A DNA stretch of 64,000 nt from Candidatus Adlerbacteria bacterium (GCA_037135035.1 JBAXLB010000001.1:94465-158464); one strand, 5' to 3'. Positions 40,014 through 62,962 are shown, counted from the first letter of the stretch. The notes: generated by a model not told the origin, from the sequence alone. Program-made: numbers and translations.

Positions 40014-40062
40014 GAAAAAAGTCTGGCCTCGCCCAAGCGAGGAGATCCGAGGACTTTTTGAA
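40014..40062. repeat. ~48-nt GC-rich repeat (family 2), intergenic copy: AAAAAGTCTGGCCTCGCCCAAGCGAGGAGATCCGAGGACTTTTTGAA.
   Basis: Nearly identical termini and core to the copy at 62667-62713. Terminal inverted AAAAGTC/GACTTTT and internal CCTCGC/GCGAGG stem. Shares the GGCCTCGCCC...CCGAGG core with family 1. Confidence 0.75.
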
Positions 40063-40088
40063 GGGAGTTTTTGCGTAGATAGTAAATG

Positions 40089-41132
40089 TTACGCGTGGGT
40101 GTTAGGCATCTCTCGGTGGATGTCTGCAATTTCTTGCATAATCTCGGGCGAAAGTGTGAGGTTTCCGGCCTCAATATCGACAGCAAGTTGTTCCATAGAT
40201 GTGGCTCCTATAATGCTCGATGTTGTAAACGGACGAGATACAGTAAAGGCAATAGCCATAGCGGCTGGGTCCAAACCATATTTTTTAGCTAAGTCGACAT
40301 AGCGCGTAATAGCCACTTGTGACTGCGGTGGGTTGTAGTGCGCGTTGCGGTCGGTTAAAGCCAAACGGCTGCCGGCAGGCCGTGCGCCACCCAAATATTT
40401 ACCCGTAAGTGAGCCCATCGAAAGGGGCGAATAGGGAAGCAGGCCGATGTTTTCACGCAGGCACATTTCCGAAAGGCCAATTTCAAATTTTCGGTTGAGT
40501 AGTGAGTACTGGTTTTGGATGGTAGAGATCTTCGCCAGGCCTTTCTCGCGCGCTAAGTTCAAATACTGCATAACGCCCCAAGGCGACTCATTAGAAACAC
40601 CAATTGCACGGACCTTACCTTCTTTTACAAGTTCGGTAAGGGCTGAAAGAGTTTCTTCAATTGGGGCGCCGTCTTGCGATGCGTCGACATCTTCAACGCC
40701 GTACCGGCCCCAGACATTGGTAAGGCGGTCGGGGCCGTGCACTTGGTAGAGGTCCACGTAGTCGGTACCAAGGCGGGTCAATGAGCCGTCTATCGCTTCG
40801 CGGATTTCGGCACGGGTAAGGCCTGATGCTTGGCGTGTGCCGATAGAGTTTTTTTGCAACATGCACGCAACCTTGCTTGCAATAATTAAGTCTTTTCTCT
40901 TTCCACTTTTTGCGAGCCACGAGCCCAAGTATTTCTCCGTTGTACCCTGCAGGTCGCGCTGCGGCGGGACGGGATAAATTTCTGCAGTGTCGATAAAGTT
41001 TATGCCATGTGCGGTCGCGTAGTCGAGCTGTTCGTGCGCCTGACTTTCCGTGTTTTGCTGGCCCCAGTTCATGGTGCCAAGGCAAATTGATGTAACTTCT
41101 ATGTCTGTGCCCGGTAGTGTTCTTTTTTGCAT
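40089..41132 (-). CDS. Aldo/keto reductase family oxidoreductase.
   Basis: AKR signatures (GTMNWG, IDTAEIY, conserved catalytic Y/K/D/H context), 347 aa. Confidence 0.85.
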   Translation of the reverse strand: MQKRTLPGTDIEVTSICLGTMNWGQQNTESQAHEQLDYATAHGINFIDTAEIYPVPPQRDLQGTTEKYLGSWLAKSGKRKDLIIASKVACMLQKNSIGTRQASGLTRAEIREAIDGSLTRLGTDYVDLYQVHGPDRLTNVWGRYGVEDVDASQDGAPIEETLSALTELVKEGKVRAIGVSNESPWGVMQYLNLAREKGLAKISTIQNQYSLLNRKFEIGLSEMCLRENIGLLPYSPLSMGSLTGKYLGGARPAGSRLALTDRNAHYNPPQSQVAITRYVDLAKKYGLDPAAMAIAFTVSRPFTTSSIIGATSMEQLAVDIEAGNLTLSPEIMQEIADIHREMPNTHA

Positions 41133-41182
41133 AAGTTACTAGTATAACAAATAAAAAAAATACTCACGCAGGAGTGAAGTAC

Positions 41183-41404
41183 CTAATTTTCTGAATGAAA
41201 TTCCTCTTTTCGTTCCGCTACATTATGGGCGGCTTCTTCCTCTTGTTCGGCAGCTATTTCCTCGGCAGCTTCTCCGGGAGTCTGTTCTTCAACACTATCT
41301 TTTTCTTCCCCATCTACAACAAACGGGGCAGTGGCCCAGACATACAAACATGCGAGTACTAGTACAAGAAGAAATACTCCACCACCTATAATAAATTCAT
41401 TCAT
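41183..41404 (-). CDS. Small membrane protein with an acidic C-terminal tail (73 aa).
   Basis: One TM helix then an E-rich tail. Directly downstream of mltG on the same strand. Confidence 0.35.
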   Translation of the reverse strand: MNEFIIGGGVFLLVLVLACLYVWATAPFVVDGEEKDSVEEQTPGEAAEEIAAEQEEEAAHNVAERKEEFHSEN

Positions 41405-61460: not shown

Positions 61461-61461
61461 C

Positions 61462-62335
61462 TTAGTGTTGTTGAAATTGCTCAAACGGCATCTCTTTTTT
61501 TCCTTCGGGAATTACGCGGAGTATATTCAGTTTTCCATCAACTATATCTGCTTCGGTAATAATCACACGTTTGCCTGCAGCTGTAATAAAATGAGCACGT
61601 GGGTTTTTGTCGAATGCGCGGATTTTTAAAAGTTGTTCGTGTGAGTCGCCGGCAAGGTCAATTAAAGAGTCGGTGTCGACAAATTTTTTTGTAAACGTTG
61701 CCGCAGCTTCGTCTTGTACTTCGGGCGTAATGTCTCCGGCAATATAAAAGGGTAGGGTTTCGGCAAGCAGGTTGCCACCTTCTGTTGCGAGCAGCTCTTC
61801 AAACTCGCTGCCCTTAGGTGGCCAAGCTTCTATTTCAAGTTCCACTTGTGCTTGTGCGACCACGGGCCCGGCGTCCATTTTTTCTGCCATCTGCATAATG
61901 GTTACGCCTGTTGCGCGTTCGTCTGCCAAAATTGCGGAGACTGCAGGGGAGGGGCCACGGAATTTTGGCAATAGTGAAGGGTGCACATTTAAGCAACCGC
62001 GGCGTGGAATATCCAAAATGTTTTTTGGAATAAGTTTTGCATAGGCGGCAACCAAAAATACATCCCAGTCGGTATTTTGCAGTTCTTCGGCAAAGCTTTT
62101 TCCGCCGGAGGCGGATCCGCCTTTGGCGGAGAGTGTTGCTGGCGTCAGTACGTCGATGCCGCGCTCCGTAGCCCACACGTTTGCAGGTGACGGCGTTAAC
62201 ACTAACCCGCGGCCCTGGTGGCGGTCGGGTGCGGTGACAACAAGTGCAGGGAGCAGTCCGTGTTTTTCCAGTGCGTCGAGCACGTGTACAGAAAATTTGG
62301 GTGTGCCAAAAAATACAAAGAGAGGTTTTTTCATA
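61462..62335 (-). CDS. fmt: Methionyl-tRNA formyltransferase. Start is at the internal ATG MKKPLFVFFGTP.
   Basis: N-terminal formyltransferase motifs (FFGTP, LNVHPSLLPKFRG) plus a C-terminal domain. Downstream of def as in the canonical operon. Confidence 0.85.
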
Positions 62336-62337
62336 CT

Positions 62338-62962
62338 AGATGCCGTGTTTGTCTTTAACTTTTTTGCGGGCACTCTTCATGTCCATATCTTCGTCTTCCT
62401 CTACATGCAGAGCTTTGTCTATATATAGTATGCCGTCTAGGTGGTCGCATTCGTGCTGGAATATATGTGCAACAAGCCCCGAGCCGTGGTACACAAACGG
62501 TTTACCTTGTTCGTCCCACGCTTCAACCGTTGCCTTTTCATGCCGCAGCACTGTGCCGTACGTGCCGCGTACTGACAAGCAGCCTTCAGACATCTCCTTC
62601 TTTTTTCTCGAAAGGCGAGTTAGAACTGGGTTTATAAATACTGTATGAGGAGGCGAAACATGTTGAAGAAAAGTCTGGCCGTGCGAAGCAAGGAGATCCG
62701 AGGACTTTTTTGAAACATGTTCCGCCGTAAGTTCATCCTCGTCGGTGTCTTTTTTAAAAACTTTTTCGCCCACGACAAACATCCGTAACGACTCTCCAAC
62801 TTGCGGTGCAGCAATAGCCACGCCAAACTCTTCTGCGGCGAGAGCTTTCTTCATCTTTTTTATAAGAGCATCTAGTGCTTTCCCGCCAATGTCTTTTTTA
62901 AGCACGGGCGCGGCCTTTTGGCTTAATACCTTGGCGCCTGCCTGCACAATAGGGTCTTTCAT
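62338..62962 (-). CDS. def: Peptide deformylase with a ~35-aa insertion that contains a family-2 repeat copy in-frame.
   Basis: Motifs GVAIAAPQVG, EGCLSV, QHECDHLDG. The insertion between RMFVVGE and INPVL spans ~35 residues where E. coli has 7. Confidence 0.85.
62667..62713. repeat. ~47-nt GC-rich repeat (family 2), copy inside def, encoding SKKSSDLLASHGQTFL.
   Basis: AGAAAAGTCTGGCCGTGCGAAGCAAGGAGATCCGAGGACTTTTTTGAA. Termini and ...GGAGATCCGAGGACTTTTTGAA are identical to the intergenic copy at 40014-40062. Confidence 0.75.

Follow-up and report, generated by a model that had tools for sequence, protein, structure and literature searches.

The closest described systems are the Rickettsia palindromic elements (RPEs), small palindromic repeats of a reduced-genome lineage that lie between genes and also in frame within unrelated housekeeping genes, where the encoded peptide fits the protein fold; the mechanism of their mobility is unknown (PMC10969869). 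Correia/NEMIS, ERIC and Coxiella QMITE elements are likewise non-autonomous, multi-copy and hairpin-forming, mostly intergenic and sometimes intragenic in frame, and Correia elements can moreover invert in place and harbour RNase III sites as well as promoters or terminators (PMC10969869). Here we describe a hairpin element, present in two copies in a 64,000-nt stretch of DNA from Candidatus Adlerbacteria bacterium (hereafter the window), that shares these general traits and probably represents a non-autonomous palindromic repeat of Patescibacteria (Paceibacteria-type CPR), RPE- or MITE-like in nature and translated where this is tolerated. The CPR bacteria, or Patescibacteria, account for a large share of bacterial diversity. 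Their tiny genomes are believed to contain hardly any mobile DNA, and insertions that lack an explanation are a known feature of their proteins and rRNAs. The RPEs differ from the element described here in their host phylum, and there is no sequence relationship between the two. The core of the element is shorter (~43-80 nt, against ~100-150 bp for RPEs) and, unlike the RPEs, it occurs in both orientations and in all frames, combines an invariant asymmetric core with a variable apex, carries locus-specific outer stems and has undergone documented in-place flips and apex swaps.

An earlier note on this DNA had pointed to two related copies, one intergenic and the other within the peptide deformylase gene (def), and we confirmed that 40017-40059 and 62669-62710 indeed share both arms. 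The features at the two sites are as follows.

39825-39980, + strand: DUF5679 mini zinc-ribbon gene (Pfam PF18930)
39995-40080, + strand: whole intergenic hairpin, locus-specific outer stem plus core (from the fold, the inverted arms and conservation in a sister genome)
40017-40028, + strand: left conserved arm AAAAGTCTGGCC of the intergenic copy (exact match)
40029-40040, + strand: variable apical stem-loop TCGCCCAAGCGA of the intergenic copy
40041-40059, + strand: right conserved arm GGAGATCCGAGGACTTTTT of the intergenic copy, with AGAU and AG bulges (exact match)
40089-41132, - strand: aldo/keto reductase gene, convergent with the DUF5679 gene (Pfam PF00248)
62336-62962, - strand: peptide deformylase gene, host of the element (Pfam PF01327, E = 1.7e-41)
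62652-62726, + strand: whole def-copy hairpin, 75 nt or 25 codons (from the inverted arms and the fold)
62669-62680, + strand: left conserved arm of the def copy (exact match)
62681-62691, + strand: variable apical stem-loop GTGCGAAGCAA of the def copy
62692-62710, + strand: right conserved arm of the def copy (exact match)

The left arm occurs exactly twice in the window, both times on the + strand, and the right arm likewise has exactly two occurrences. When up to three mismatches were allowed, the right arm gave 5 matches against 0.03 expected by chance, and a covariance model run over the 64 kb recovered no copies beyond these two (77 and 71 bits, the next match scoring 15 bits). The spacers between the arms, 12 nt in the intergenic copy and 11 nt in the def copy, are different sequences, yet each forms a small stem-loop. 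The inverted termini AAAAGTC/GACTTTT that had been noticed earlier are real, and complementarity runs much further outward than was noted, with 40003-40023 pairing with 40052-40072 and 62652-62675 with 62703-62726; both cores are the tip of a longer, locus-specific stem. In the def copy, whose inverted arms are 24 nt long and 83% complementary, the core is followed outward by a 4x4 loop and then by an outer stem of 13 bp (GGCGAAACATGTT/AACATGTTCCGCC) that is specific to this locus. RNA folding yielded -37.4 kcal/mol for the intergenic hairpin (z -5.8) and -34.3 kcal/mol for the def hairpin (z -3.9), none of 200 shuffles being as stable in either case; on the mRNA strand the def hairpin folds with -30.3 kcal/mol, compared with the -34.3 kcal/mol of the + strand. 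The intergenic copy, which is kept at the orthologous site of a sister genome (L017), is closely framed by its neighbours: the DUF5679 stop codon lies ~22 nt upstream of the inverted arms (40003) and that of the aldo/keto reductase gene ~16 nt from their far end (40072).

The check for additional copies that the earlier note had proposed located an 18-mer of the right arm at no fewer than 113 sites in 63 other genomes, all Patescibacteria MAGs. Among the matches listed, several MAGs hold 4-6 exact copies, and the only non-CPR matches are two Firmicutes sites, both lacking the left arm and consistent with chance. Since the 18-mer hits listed are otherwise confined to Patescibacteria, the element may be regarded as an analogue of the RPEs rather than a member, and since many MAG labels, 'Saccharibacteria' among them, may be generic, its phylogenetic breadth is uncertain. 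About 37% of the two-armed copies among the matches listed (40 of 109) reside inside ORFs, 22 antisense and 18 sense. In-frame housekeeping hosts include Def, PolA, LigA, TGT, RecG and RNase R; Pfam confirmed ParB, TGT, transketolase, PolA, a class I tRNA synthetase, RecG, UvrC, RNase R, RecJ and a TraG/TrwB-type coupling protein as hosts. The hallmark of RPEs, an in-frame palindromic repeat in unrelated housekeeping ORFs, is thus found here as well. The dispersed hairpin family envisaged earlier, lying both between and within genes, is substantiated by these counts and by a sister genome (JAPLUW) that is devoid of the def copy. Viral contigs, searched with a phage vector in mind, gave 0 matches, no tRNA or tmRNA was detected at the two sites in the window, and a search of the literature by topic and by sequence string found no description for CPR.

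Across the family the unit begins with an A-run and GTCTGGCC, continues with an apical hairpin that varies and with GGAGAUCCGAGGAC, and ends in a U/T-run; in most cases a longer stem carries it at its tip, bringing the total to 70-130 nt. The apex ranges from 10 to 40 nt, while a 30-nt core is identical across the many genera of the family. It is possible that the hairpin, whose internal loops do not vary, acts in cis as a structured RNA or single-stranded DNA and that purifying selection retains it at every location, for example as an intrinsic terminator working in both directions, as a determinant of RNase processing or stability, or as a site to which a conserved CPR protein docks. We consider this explanation doubtful, but several observations speak for it. 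Among 95 distinct copies, retrieved with one arm only, there is almost no variation in either arm, GTCTGGCC being invariant in at least 92 of the 95 without having been used to find them, and the arms hold although flanking genes are only 70-85% identical between genomes. Orthologous loci also retain their copies where flank identity is 70-90%. Covariation is seen in the apical and outer stems, 3x3 loops of the GNA/GNA type and tandem G·A pairs recur on one strand, and the + strand, whose G·U pairs are twice as numerous, is the more stable one in 101 of 106 copies. An A-run precedes the GC-rich core hairpin and U4-7 follows it, and the intergenic copy of the window is placed exactly between two convergent genes, which fits a terminator and renders such a role plausible for this copy. 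However, a simple consensus terminator scan did not call it, and the family as a whole displays no terminator-like bias in orientation or location: relative to neighbouring or host genes the orientation is close to random (45 antisense, 33 sense), intergenic copies exhibit no orientation bias and about a quarter of them occupy divergent regions. Orthologous genes, moreover, can carry the element in opposite orientations at the same site, copies lie within essential coding regions, in which termination or cleavage would do damage, and the same sites in the proteins often show decayed, partly deleted or missing versions. Nor is there a corresponding Rfam family, as Rfam 15 returned nothing at the elements at the gathering threshold and, by E-value, gave a best match of 0.34 (RsmY, 12.7 bits against a threshold of 57) together with miRNA-like hairpins.

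The def copy illustrates how the element is accommodated in a coding sequence. As the earlier note had claimed, it is in frame, lying antisense to def and encoding SKKSSDLLASHGQTFL; read in the def frame, the element gives KKSSDLLASHGQTF. An example of a predicted junction peptide of a genic element is ...EHVSKKSSDLLASHGQTFLQHVSPP... The insertion of ~35 aa that had been proposed for Def was, on the other hand, overstated, as it amounts to 15 aa relative to the nearest orthologue. The filled site measures 84 nt and the empty site of JAPLUW 39 nt, a net difference of 45 nt or 15 codons in a def region that is ~91% identical between the window and this sister genome; the insert is missing from the Def orthologue P0002. 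Since the 'empty' JAPLUW site still holds GATGAAAAGTCTG, which is likely a remnant of the element, the polymorphism may reflect a deletion rather than a new insertion. In the AlphaFold model of Def (mean pLDDT 85.7), pLDDT falls below 50 only at residues 74-101 (28 residues), and in this model the insert is a disordered loop of an otherwise intact and confident fold. By manual reading of peptide signatures, whose frames and orientations vary, element peptides, intact or decayed, are present in about 25% of the Def loops and about 30% of the PolA linkers (120 of each). In all six frames the conserved arms are free of stop codons, a property matched by only 4% of shuffles, and frame use is skewed, with ratios of 15 : 4 : 1 for KSSDL and 12 : 1 : 1 for GDPRTF in a manual tally that took in hosts of at least 250 aa and the copy in the Dus gene. 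At least one unrelated hairpin was found in the same Def loop.

Comparison of orthologous loci reveals turnover. In both ligA (L011 versus L055) and holB (L062 versus L105) a central segment of ~85 nt is reverse-complemented between collinear flanks, and in Def lineages the element is sense in P0004 and antisense in the window and in P0020. Perhaps these flips mark a programmed intragenic inverton, the outer stem constituting the inverted repeats of a switch that recodes surface loops of housekeeping proteins by phase variation. Intragenic invertons and inversion of Correia elements are on record (PMC10028968; PMC10969869), and arms that are open in six frames would permit translation in both orientations. 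Such a switch nevertheless strikes us as quite improbable. The flips are observed only between species and in no case inside a single population, the 821 ORFs that flank the copies include no linked invertase gene, the recoded peptides fall into disordered loops and have no obvious function, and the window and its sister genome share the same orientation at both the intergenic and the polA copies.

Other changes involve the apex or the entire hairpin. Between L023 and L056 the flanks and outer stems align closely while the apices are unrelated, each apex matching other copies of its own genome; these alignments show the apical hairpin to be exchanged or homogenised among the copies of one genome. 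A young subfamily in def, dus, polA and tkt of the window's lineage has cores that differ by 0-1 nt and outer stems that are different, the def-copy apex being identical in the Dus-gene copy (L123) and 1 nt away from the polA (L112) and tkt (L021) copies of the sister genome. An extra hairpin of ~105 nt is present in L043 and absent from L072, L113 is a core-deleted derivative in which TG and GA of the arms remain, and many copies have decayed by central deletion and point mutation. The def copy is accompanied by a 10-bp direct repeat, GAAACATGTT, at 62655-62664 and 62712-62721, its two units being offset by 57 nt or 19 codons. We rejected it as a target-site duplication because the AACATGTT that it contains is a palindrome within the 13-bp inverted outer stem of this copy and because the flanks of other copies are inverted and not direct repeats. 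No target-site duplication was detected in the L043/L072 or L013/L113 comparisons. The idea that pre-existing hairpins received the core in their loops was also discarded: the sole coreless hairpin, L113, is a deletion derivative, L043 and L072 differ by a whole hairpin, and perfect stems of 12-17 bp in coding DNA cannot have pre-existed. L005 and L100 could not be accepted as an orthologous pair whose outer stems differ, the alignment of their flanks being too weak.

It appears more improbable still that the copies are a recognition sequence in double-stranded DNA, such as a DNA-uptake signal or another protein-binding site, that has spread through molecular drive and not by insertion. DUS and USS occur in both orientations, in coding and non-coding DNA and with preferred frames, and CPR bacteria are thought to rely on natural competence. 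The element resembles these signals in its orientations, locations and preferred reading frames, and its sequence is highly conserved over many genomes. However, when orthologous sites are compared the copies stand out as inserted blocks of 45-105 nt and not as matches built up by point mutation, which is already a strong argument against this reading; conserved complementarity and an apex of variable length, moreover, point to a folded single strand rather than a linear duplex site, and two copies per 64 kb is far below the density of known uptake sequences. Chance similarity or a local duplication in this genome, which the mere two copies in the 64-kb window might suggest, is refuted, as 12 + 19 nt match exactly where 0.03 matches are expected even with three mismatches, and local duplication, raised as a possible source of the two copies, is excluded because their flanks are unrelated and the element recurs at the sites in other genomes.

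The reading that we favour is that of a non-autonomous palindromic repeat, translated where tolerated, for which we infer mobility only from presence or absence at orthologous sites and from the similarity of copies. It is weakened by the near-invariance of the arms, which exceeds simple selfish decay and would also fit a selected function. The modest copy number, up to 6 exact copies per genome among the matches listed, and the perfect, locus-specific outer stems found within coding DNA also count against it, and neither a donor-to-recipient event nor a transposase was seen in the compared loci. Genic copies would be translated and would survive only in tolerant surface loops or linkers, presumably helped by the fact that the arms are stop-free in six frames. 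Since the bulges (AG, AGAU and one U·G pair) are invariant and asymmetric, the folded single strand may be the target of a trans-acting protein responsible for moving or maintaining the element, in parallel with REP/RAYT, IS200/IS605 ends or attC/IntI. Flips and the perfect, locus-specific outer stems could arise from recombination or from replication template-switching between the hairpin arms, and intergenic copies may double as bidirectional terminators. A bolder scenario, and an unlikely one, is that of a CPR-wide nucleic-acid module, a folded single strand with an invariant bulged core that is read by a conserved protein which either moves the hairpin by a transposase-independent or new hairpin-based mechanism, with locus-specific inverted flanks, or flips it in place and thereby reversibly recodes loops of essential proteins such as Def, PolA, LigA, HolB and TGT. 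If true, either activity would be a new mechanism of genome and protein diversification in ultra-small bacteria. With a palindromic repeat as favoured here, small elements would repeatedly invade loops and linkers of essential CPR proteins, flip in place, exchange their tips and decay into lineage-specific insertions. The element would then account concretely for some of the 'extra' sequence found in CPR proteins and provide a new natural system outside Rickettsia for how selfish DNA turns into coding sequence. The invariant 30-nt core could serve as a compact, easily searched marker for these lineages, and its invariant bulges point to an undiscovered protein partner.

How far the element conforms to other classes of small repeats can be judged from several traits. 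Like a MITE, it is short (70-130 nt), non-coding and multi-copy (4-6 exact copies in several MAGs among the matches listed, two in the window). Its termini AAAAGTC/GACTTTT and the longer stems are inverted, and no transposase-like neighbour or recurring recombinase was encountered among the 821 flanking ORFs. It differs from MITEs in that no target-site duplication was found, the flanks being inverted repeats, and in that conservation lies in an internal bulged core instead of at the termini; to our knowledge, no parent insertion sequence has matching terminal repeats. REP/RAYT systems and IS200/IS605 ends (PATEs) have conserved bulged bases and are recognised as folded single-stranded DNA, have neither terminal inverted repeats nor target-site duplications, and come in genome-specific sequence types. 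REPs are imperfect hairpins (PMC3733652). The element, however, is without the GTAG/CGTC tag of REP/REPIN, its feet being A/T runs beside GTC/GAC, it is intragenic in 37% of copies whereas REP/REPIN are extragenic, and its orientation relative to genes is unbiased, unlike that of REP/RAYT; no RAYT, TnpA or recurrent Y1/HUH-like gene was identified near the copies among the 821 flanking ORFs.

Integron attC sites are similar in architecture, with conserved paired boxes, extrahelical bases on one strand and a variable terminal structure that differs widely in length, and they function as a folded single strand. In contrast to attC, the element forms no cassette arrays, has no R'/R'' GTTRRRY core sites, resides inside housekeeping genes and has no integrase nearby. 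The GC clusters of yeast mitochondria and the 'byp' elements, which are systems unrelated to this one, are short mobile hairpins found in spacers and coding regions of compact genomes in both orientations. Whereas byp elements are skipped by the ribosome, ordinary translation is favoured for the element because all genic copies are open in the host frame and decayed ones stay in frame. Compared by eye only, a K-turn, the 11-nt tetraloop receptor, group II intron domain 5, hammerhead and other ribozyme cores and attC R-boxes do not fit, and a small ORF within the element (ATG in AAAATGTC) was dismissed, as apex lengths are not multiples of three.

The window also contains a second repeat, family 1, for which a common superfamily with the element (family 2) had been suggested.

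14299-14330, 14422-14453 and 15688-15719: family 1 copies

Such kinship is not supported, as family 1 has no covariance-model match (E > 10). It occurs in none of the 116 loci (~0.85 Mb) that contain or adjoin family-2 copies, and its fold is no better than that of shuffled sequence (z -0.7 to -1.1). The overlap that had been perceived between the families, GCCTCGCCC/CCGAGG, stems from the variable apex of a single copy. Family 1 itself is another in-frame repeat, encoding ASPVGR[A/E]RPR twice in RNase R and also in TrmD.

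Exact matches to two conserved arms place one copy of the hairpin repeat between genes and a second, related copy in frame within the peptide deformylase gene (def), in keeping with the earlier note:

39825-39980, + strand: DUF5679 mini zinc-ribbon gene, convergent with the aldo/keto reductase gene, the intergenic copy lying between them
40003-40023/40052-40072: inverted arms of the intergenic hairpin
40017-40028 and 62669-62680, + strand: left arm AAAAGTCTGGCC, exact matches
40041-40059 and 62692-62710, + strand: right arm GGAGATCCGAGGACTTTTT, exact matches
40089-41132, - strand: aldo/keto reductase gene, the other flank of the intergenic copy
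62336-62962, - strand: def, host of the second copy, which is antisense to it
62652-62675/62703-62726: inverted arms of the def hairpin

Exact AAAAGTCTGGCC and exact GGAGATCCGAGGACTTTTT each occur twice in the window, where 0.03 matches to GGAGATCCGAGGACTTTTT would be expected by chance with up to three mismatches tolerated. The inter-arm spacers are unlike (12 nt, TCGCCCAAGCGA, in the intergenic copy and 11 nt, GTGCGAAGCAA, in the def copy). Since either spacer forms a small stem-loop, the copies share one fold, which from base to tip consists of AAAAGUC/GACUUUU, an AG bulge, UGG/CCG with a U·G pair, an AGAU bulge, CC/GG and the apex. The inverted termini AAAAGTC/GACTTTT noted earlier do pair, but the extent then marked was too short, as the arms reach 40003-40072 and 62652-62726. 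The full intergenic hairpin folds at -37.4 kcal/mol (z -5.8) and the full def hairpin at -34.3 kcal/mol (z -3.9), or at -30.3 kcal/mol (z -4.2) when read as the def mRNA strand. Scored with a covariance model derived from 34 members of the family, the two copies reach 77 and 71 bits; the remaining window matches (15 bits or less) are plain terminator-like hairpins, the top one being a perfect 40-bp palindrome at 1112-1151 (AAACAAAAAACTCCCCGGAT/ATCCGGGGAGTTTTTTGTTT; 15 bits) that looks like a bidirectional terminator. Judged by its position, the intergenic copy could plausibly act as a terminator.

The family is dispersed, as had been proposed: the 18-mer GGAGATCCGAGGACTTTT, scanned against species-representative genomes, matched at least 114 DNA stretches, with about 17 chance matches estimated for a collection of such size, and at least 113 matches, genic and intergenic, come from at least 63 Patescibacteria MAGs labelled Adler-, Kaiser-, Vogel-, Nomura- or Zambryskibacteria, Paceibacterota, Minisyncoccia or Saccharibacteria. 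Because the Saccharibacteria labels on third-party assemblies may be generic, we claim the element for Paceibacteria-type CPR bacteria only. Among the matches listed, the richest single genome has six, and two Firmicutes stretches lack the left arm, consistent with chance. In 109 of the 117 matches listed, a left arm is found no more than 80 nt upstream, and GUCUGGCC, which was not a search query, is unchanged in 92 or more of the 95 distinct copies. The apex is mostly 10-40 nt long (median 21 in the copies listed), its stem positions covary across copies, and its first two pairs are tandem G·A/A·G in about half of them (CCGAGC...GCGAGG). Over 734 kb of loci the covariance model added just three copies, scoring lower. 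The viral sequence collection gave zero matches, no Rfam family fits, and we found no description of the element in the literature searched.

Beyond GTC/GAC, a median of 18 additional positions are paired. In subfamily A, which is AT-rich and about 120 nt long, stems P0 and P1 vary among copies with compensating changes on both arms (ACAAATT/AATTTGT, GCGAATT/AATTCGC, ATAGATT/AATCTAT); selection would account for these, and so would correction templated by the hairpin. A GNA/GNA internal loop (3x3) is recurrent at the base and takes the form GGA/GTA in def, and perfect outer stems occur within coding sequences too (L029 polA, 17 bp; def, 13 bp). Of 106 copies, 101 are more stable as the + than as the - strand (mean difference -6.2 kcal/mol); the + strand has 322 G·U pairs against 162, about 106 of the 322 being, by our own reckoning, the single fixed core U·G pair. 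The conserved entity is therefore a folded single strand of one polarity. The main rival explanation is that the element is kept by selection as a structured RNA or DNA site; the extreme conservation of both arms and the strand-specific motifs favour it. The right outer arm of subfamily A also contains a perfect TATAAT (CAGAATATAATTTGTG; L023, L018, L048, L057 and others) some 25-30 nt before the start codon of the following gene, which by analogy with Correia elements could be a putative outward-facing promoter.

Comparison of orthologous loci brings out several kinds of difference between copies. In ligA (L011 against L055) and holB (L062 against L105) the coding flanks are collinear, and the central 85-90 nt or so, including the asymmetric core, aligns solely as the reverse complement. 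An extra hairpin of about 105 nt is present in L043 and absent from L072, with flanks 83-85% identical. L113 retains the outer hairpin of L013 with the core cut to TGGA, made up of TG from one arm and GA from the other; the subfamily-A hairpins comprise 18 full and one coreless. At the orthologous locus L023/L056, flanks and outer stems align closely and the apices are unrelated (GAGCTTCTCAAAGAAGTAGGCGA vs TGCCTGGAGCCTGAGTATGGACA), each resembling the remaining copies in its own genome, a case of concerted evolution, with the invariant arms likely providing the homology used for conversion. The core of the def copy (apex GTGCGAAGCAA) is identical to that of an in-frame copy in a Dus-like gene on metagenome contig L123 and 1 nt away from that of the polA and tkt copies in the sister genome JAPLUW; PolA of the window genome (P0121) has the same peptide. 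These def, dus, polA and tkt copies, all antisense and in one frame, with outer stems that all differ (4-13 bp), are a young subfamily in the window lineage.

Translated in frame, the def copy reads KKSSDLLASHGQTF. In the AlphaFold model, the window Def has a mean pLDDT of 85.7 and is confidently predicted save for residues 74-101 (pLDDT <50). These residues are the insert, flanked by helix 67-73 and strand 107-117, and the catalytic motifs are unaffected. JAPLUW (Adlerbacteria LacPavin_0818_WC45_MAG_49_12) shares about 91% identity with the window in the def region and 75-98% in other common segments; its Def is 15 residues shorter, with 39 nt against 84 nt at the loop, and is identical elsewhere. 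That site keeps GATGAAAAGTCTG, the left end of a sense-oriented unit, and is thus probably not virgin. Other Def homologues carry at the same spot:

P0004: an intact sense element (...GAAGAAAAGTCTGGCC...GGAGATCCGAGGACTTTT...)
P0020: an antisense element carrying a single substitution in an arm
P0039 and P0036: altered-arm variants
P0007: a remnant, EEKS
P0038 (L120, 301-897), also P0014: an unrelated hairpin of about 90 nt

The last of these differs from the element, so several unrelated hairpin families invade the Def loop in CPR bacteria. The P0038 hairpin has the outer stem GGAGGAGAGGAGTGACCT/AGGTCACTTCTCTCCTCC, interrupted by a mismatch or bulge; the loop segment of about 147 nt that holds this hairpin folds at -55 kcal/mol. 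Judged from peptide signatures, intact or decayed element peptides occur in about one in four Def homologues (in the loop) and about 30% of PolA homologues (in the linker), 120 of each having been compared.

By crude gene calls, 40 of the 109 two-armed copies lie inside ORFs (22 antisense, 18 sense), 67 are intergenic and two overlap the end of a called gene. Intergenic copies occupy tandem spacers (23 antisense to the genes, 15 sense), divergent (14) or convergent (6) spacers, or have a called neighbour on a single side (9). With counts so mixed, there is neither an orientation rule nor terminator-like placement. The hosts are ordinary housekeeping proteins, confirmed by Pfam (ParB, TGT, transketolase, DNA polymerase I, class I tRNA synthetase, RecG, UvrC, RNase R, RecJ, VirD4-like ATPase) or recognised by inspection (LigA, HolB, TsaD, PheS, ATP synthase gamma, a methyltransferase). 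The TGT insert at L108 ~3228-3270 has an apparently complete element and a second partial left arm (…QKVLGSPRDARPDIFDRDFLSPSLGQTFSSGTSS…), suggesting nested or tandem insertion. In tsaD, the element lies at L066 ~1925-1994; the corresponding coding position of the orthologue (L079 835-877) is occupied by a perfect 9-bp hairpin, ACTTGGAGGTTGAACCTCCAAGT, unrelated to the element.

All three frames of either strand are read, giving antisense (KSSDL...GQTF, KVLGSP...RPDF, KSPRIS) and sense peptides (KSG...GDPRTF, KVWP...RSEDF, ...EIRGLF). Usage is skewed, 15:4:1 antisense and 12:1:1 sense in a tally of hosts of at least 250 aa plus the Dus-like copy (L123), some orthologous copies being counted, which suggests selection acting on the peptide. 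Stop codons are absent from the conserved arms in all six frames, which holds for just 4% of composition-matched shuffles, and whole elements have on average 5.5 of 6 open frames when genic vs 4.5 when intergenic.

A selected site fits poorly with the flips, the frequent decay, the copies inside genes and an orientation that is random. A more appealing scenario, to which the evidence points, is a non-autonomous palindromic repeat that is translated where tolerated, because it is dispersed in many copies at genic and intergenic sites in both orientations, with filled/empty and filled/flipped orthologous sites, subfamilies common to related genomes, abundant decay, six-frame openness and no linked gene, no transposase-like neighbour recurring among 821 flanking ORFs. 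It would be an analogue of Rickettsia palindromic elements and in-frame MITEs, repeats that, as a review notes, can also invert, as Correia elements do (PMC10969869). It lacks the target-site duplication of a MITE, a known parent insertion sequence and a REP tag. Perhaps the bulged core, which is invariant, is recognised once folded by a protein acting in trans, as is the case for RAYT/REP, IS200/IS605 TnpA and IntI/attC, and recombination or template switching between hairpin arms might generate both the flips and the locus-specific perfect outer stems.

A separate 32-nt repeat, family 1, is also real:

12455-14572, - strand: RNase R gene, hosting two copies
14299-14330, + strand: repeat CCCTCGGCCGTKCYCGTCCTACRGGCGAGGCY
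14422-14453, + strand: repeat
15608-16288, + strand: TrmD gene, hosting one copy
15688-15719, - strand: repeat

It encodes ASPVGR(A/E)RPR in frame. The idea that it forms one superfamily with the hairpin element is unsupported, since it does not match the covariance model, was not found in 116 related CPR loci, folds no better than shuffles and overlaps the element only in the variable apex of one copy. In-frame repeats of at least two kinds are clearly present in the window genome. Low-complexity GGN-rich sequence and four 54-nt units in tandem, at 219-355 and 529-798 at the window start, probably encode a repetitive Gly-rich protein.

ARAGORN found zero tRNA genes in the window. A tmRNA at 8306-8629 (-) scores 111 bits with the alphaproteobacterial and 76 bits with the permuted tmRNA model, in a CPR genome. 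A group I intron (RF00028, 79 bits) lies at 58237-58532 (-); the sister genome (L115 13970-14268) matches the overlapping stretch 58190-58487 at 97.7% identity. Finally, a LOOT RNA (RF03000, 79 bits) at 54167-54282 (+) has a 78% identical copy in a Patescibacteria MAG (L009 2037-2194), about 700 nt from a family-2 hairpin element.
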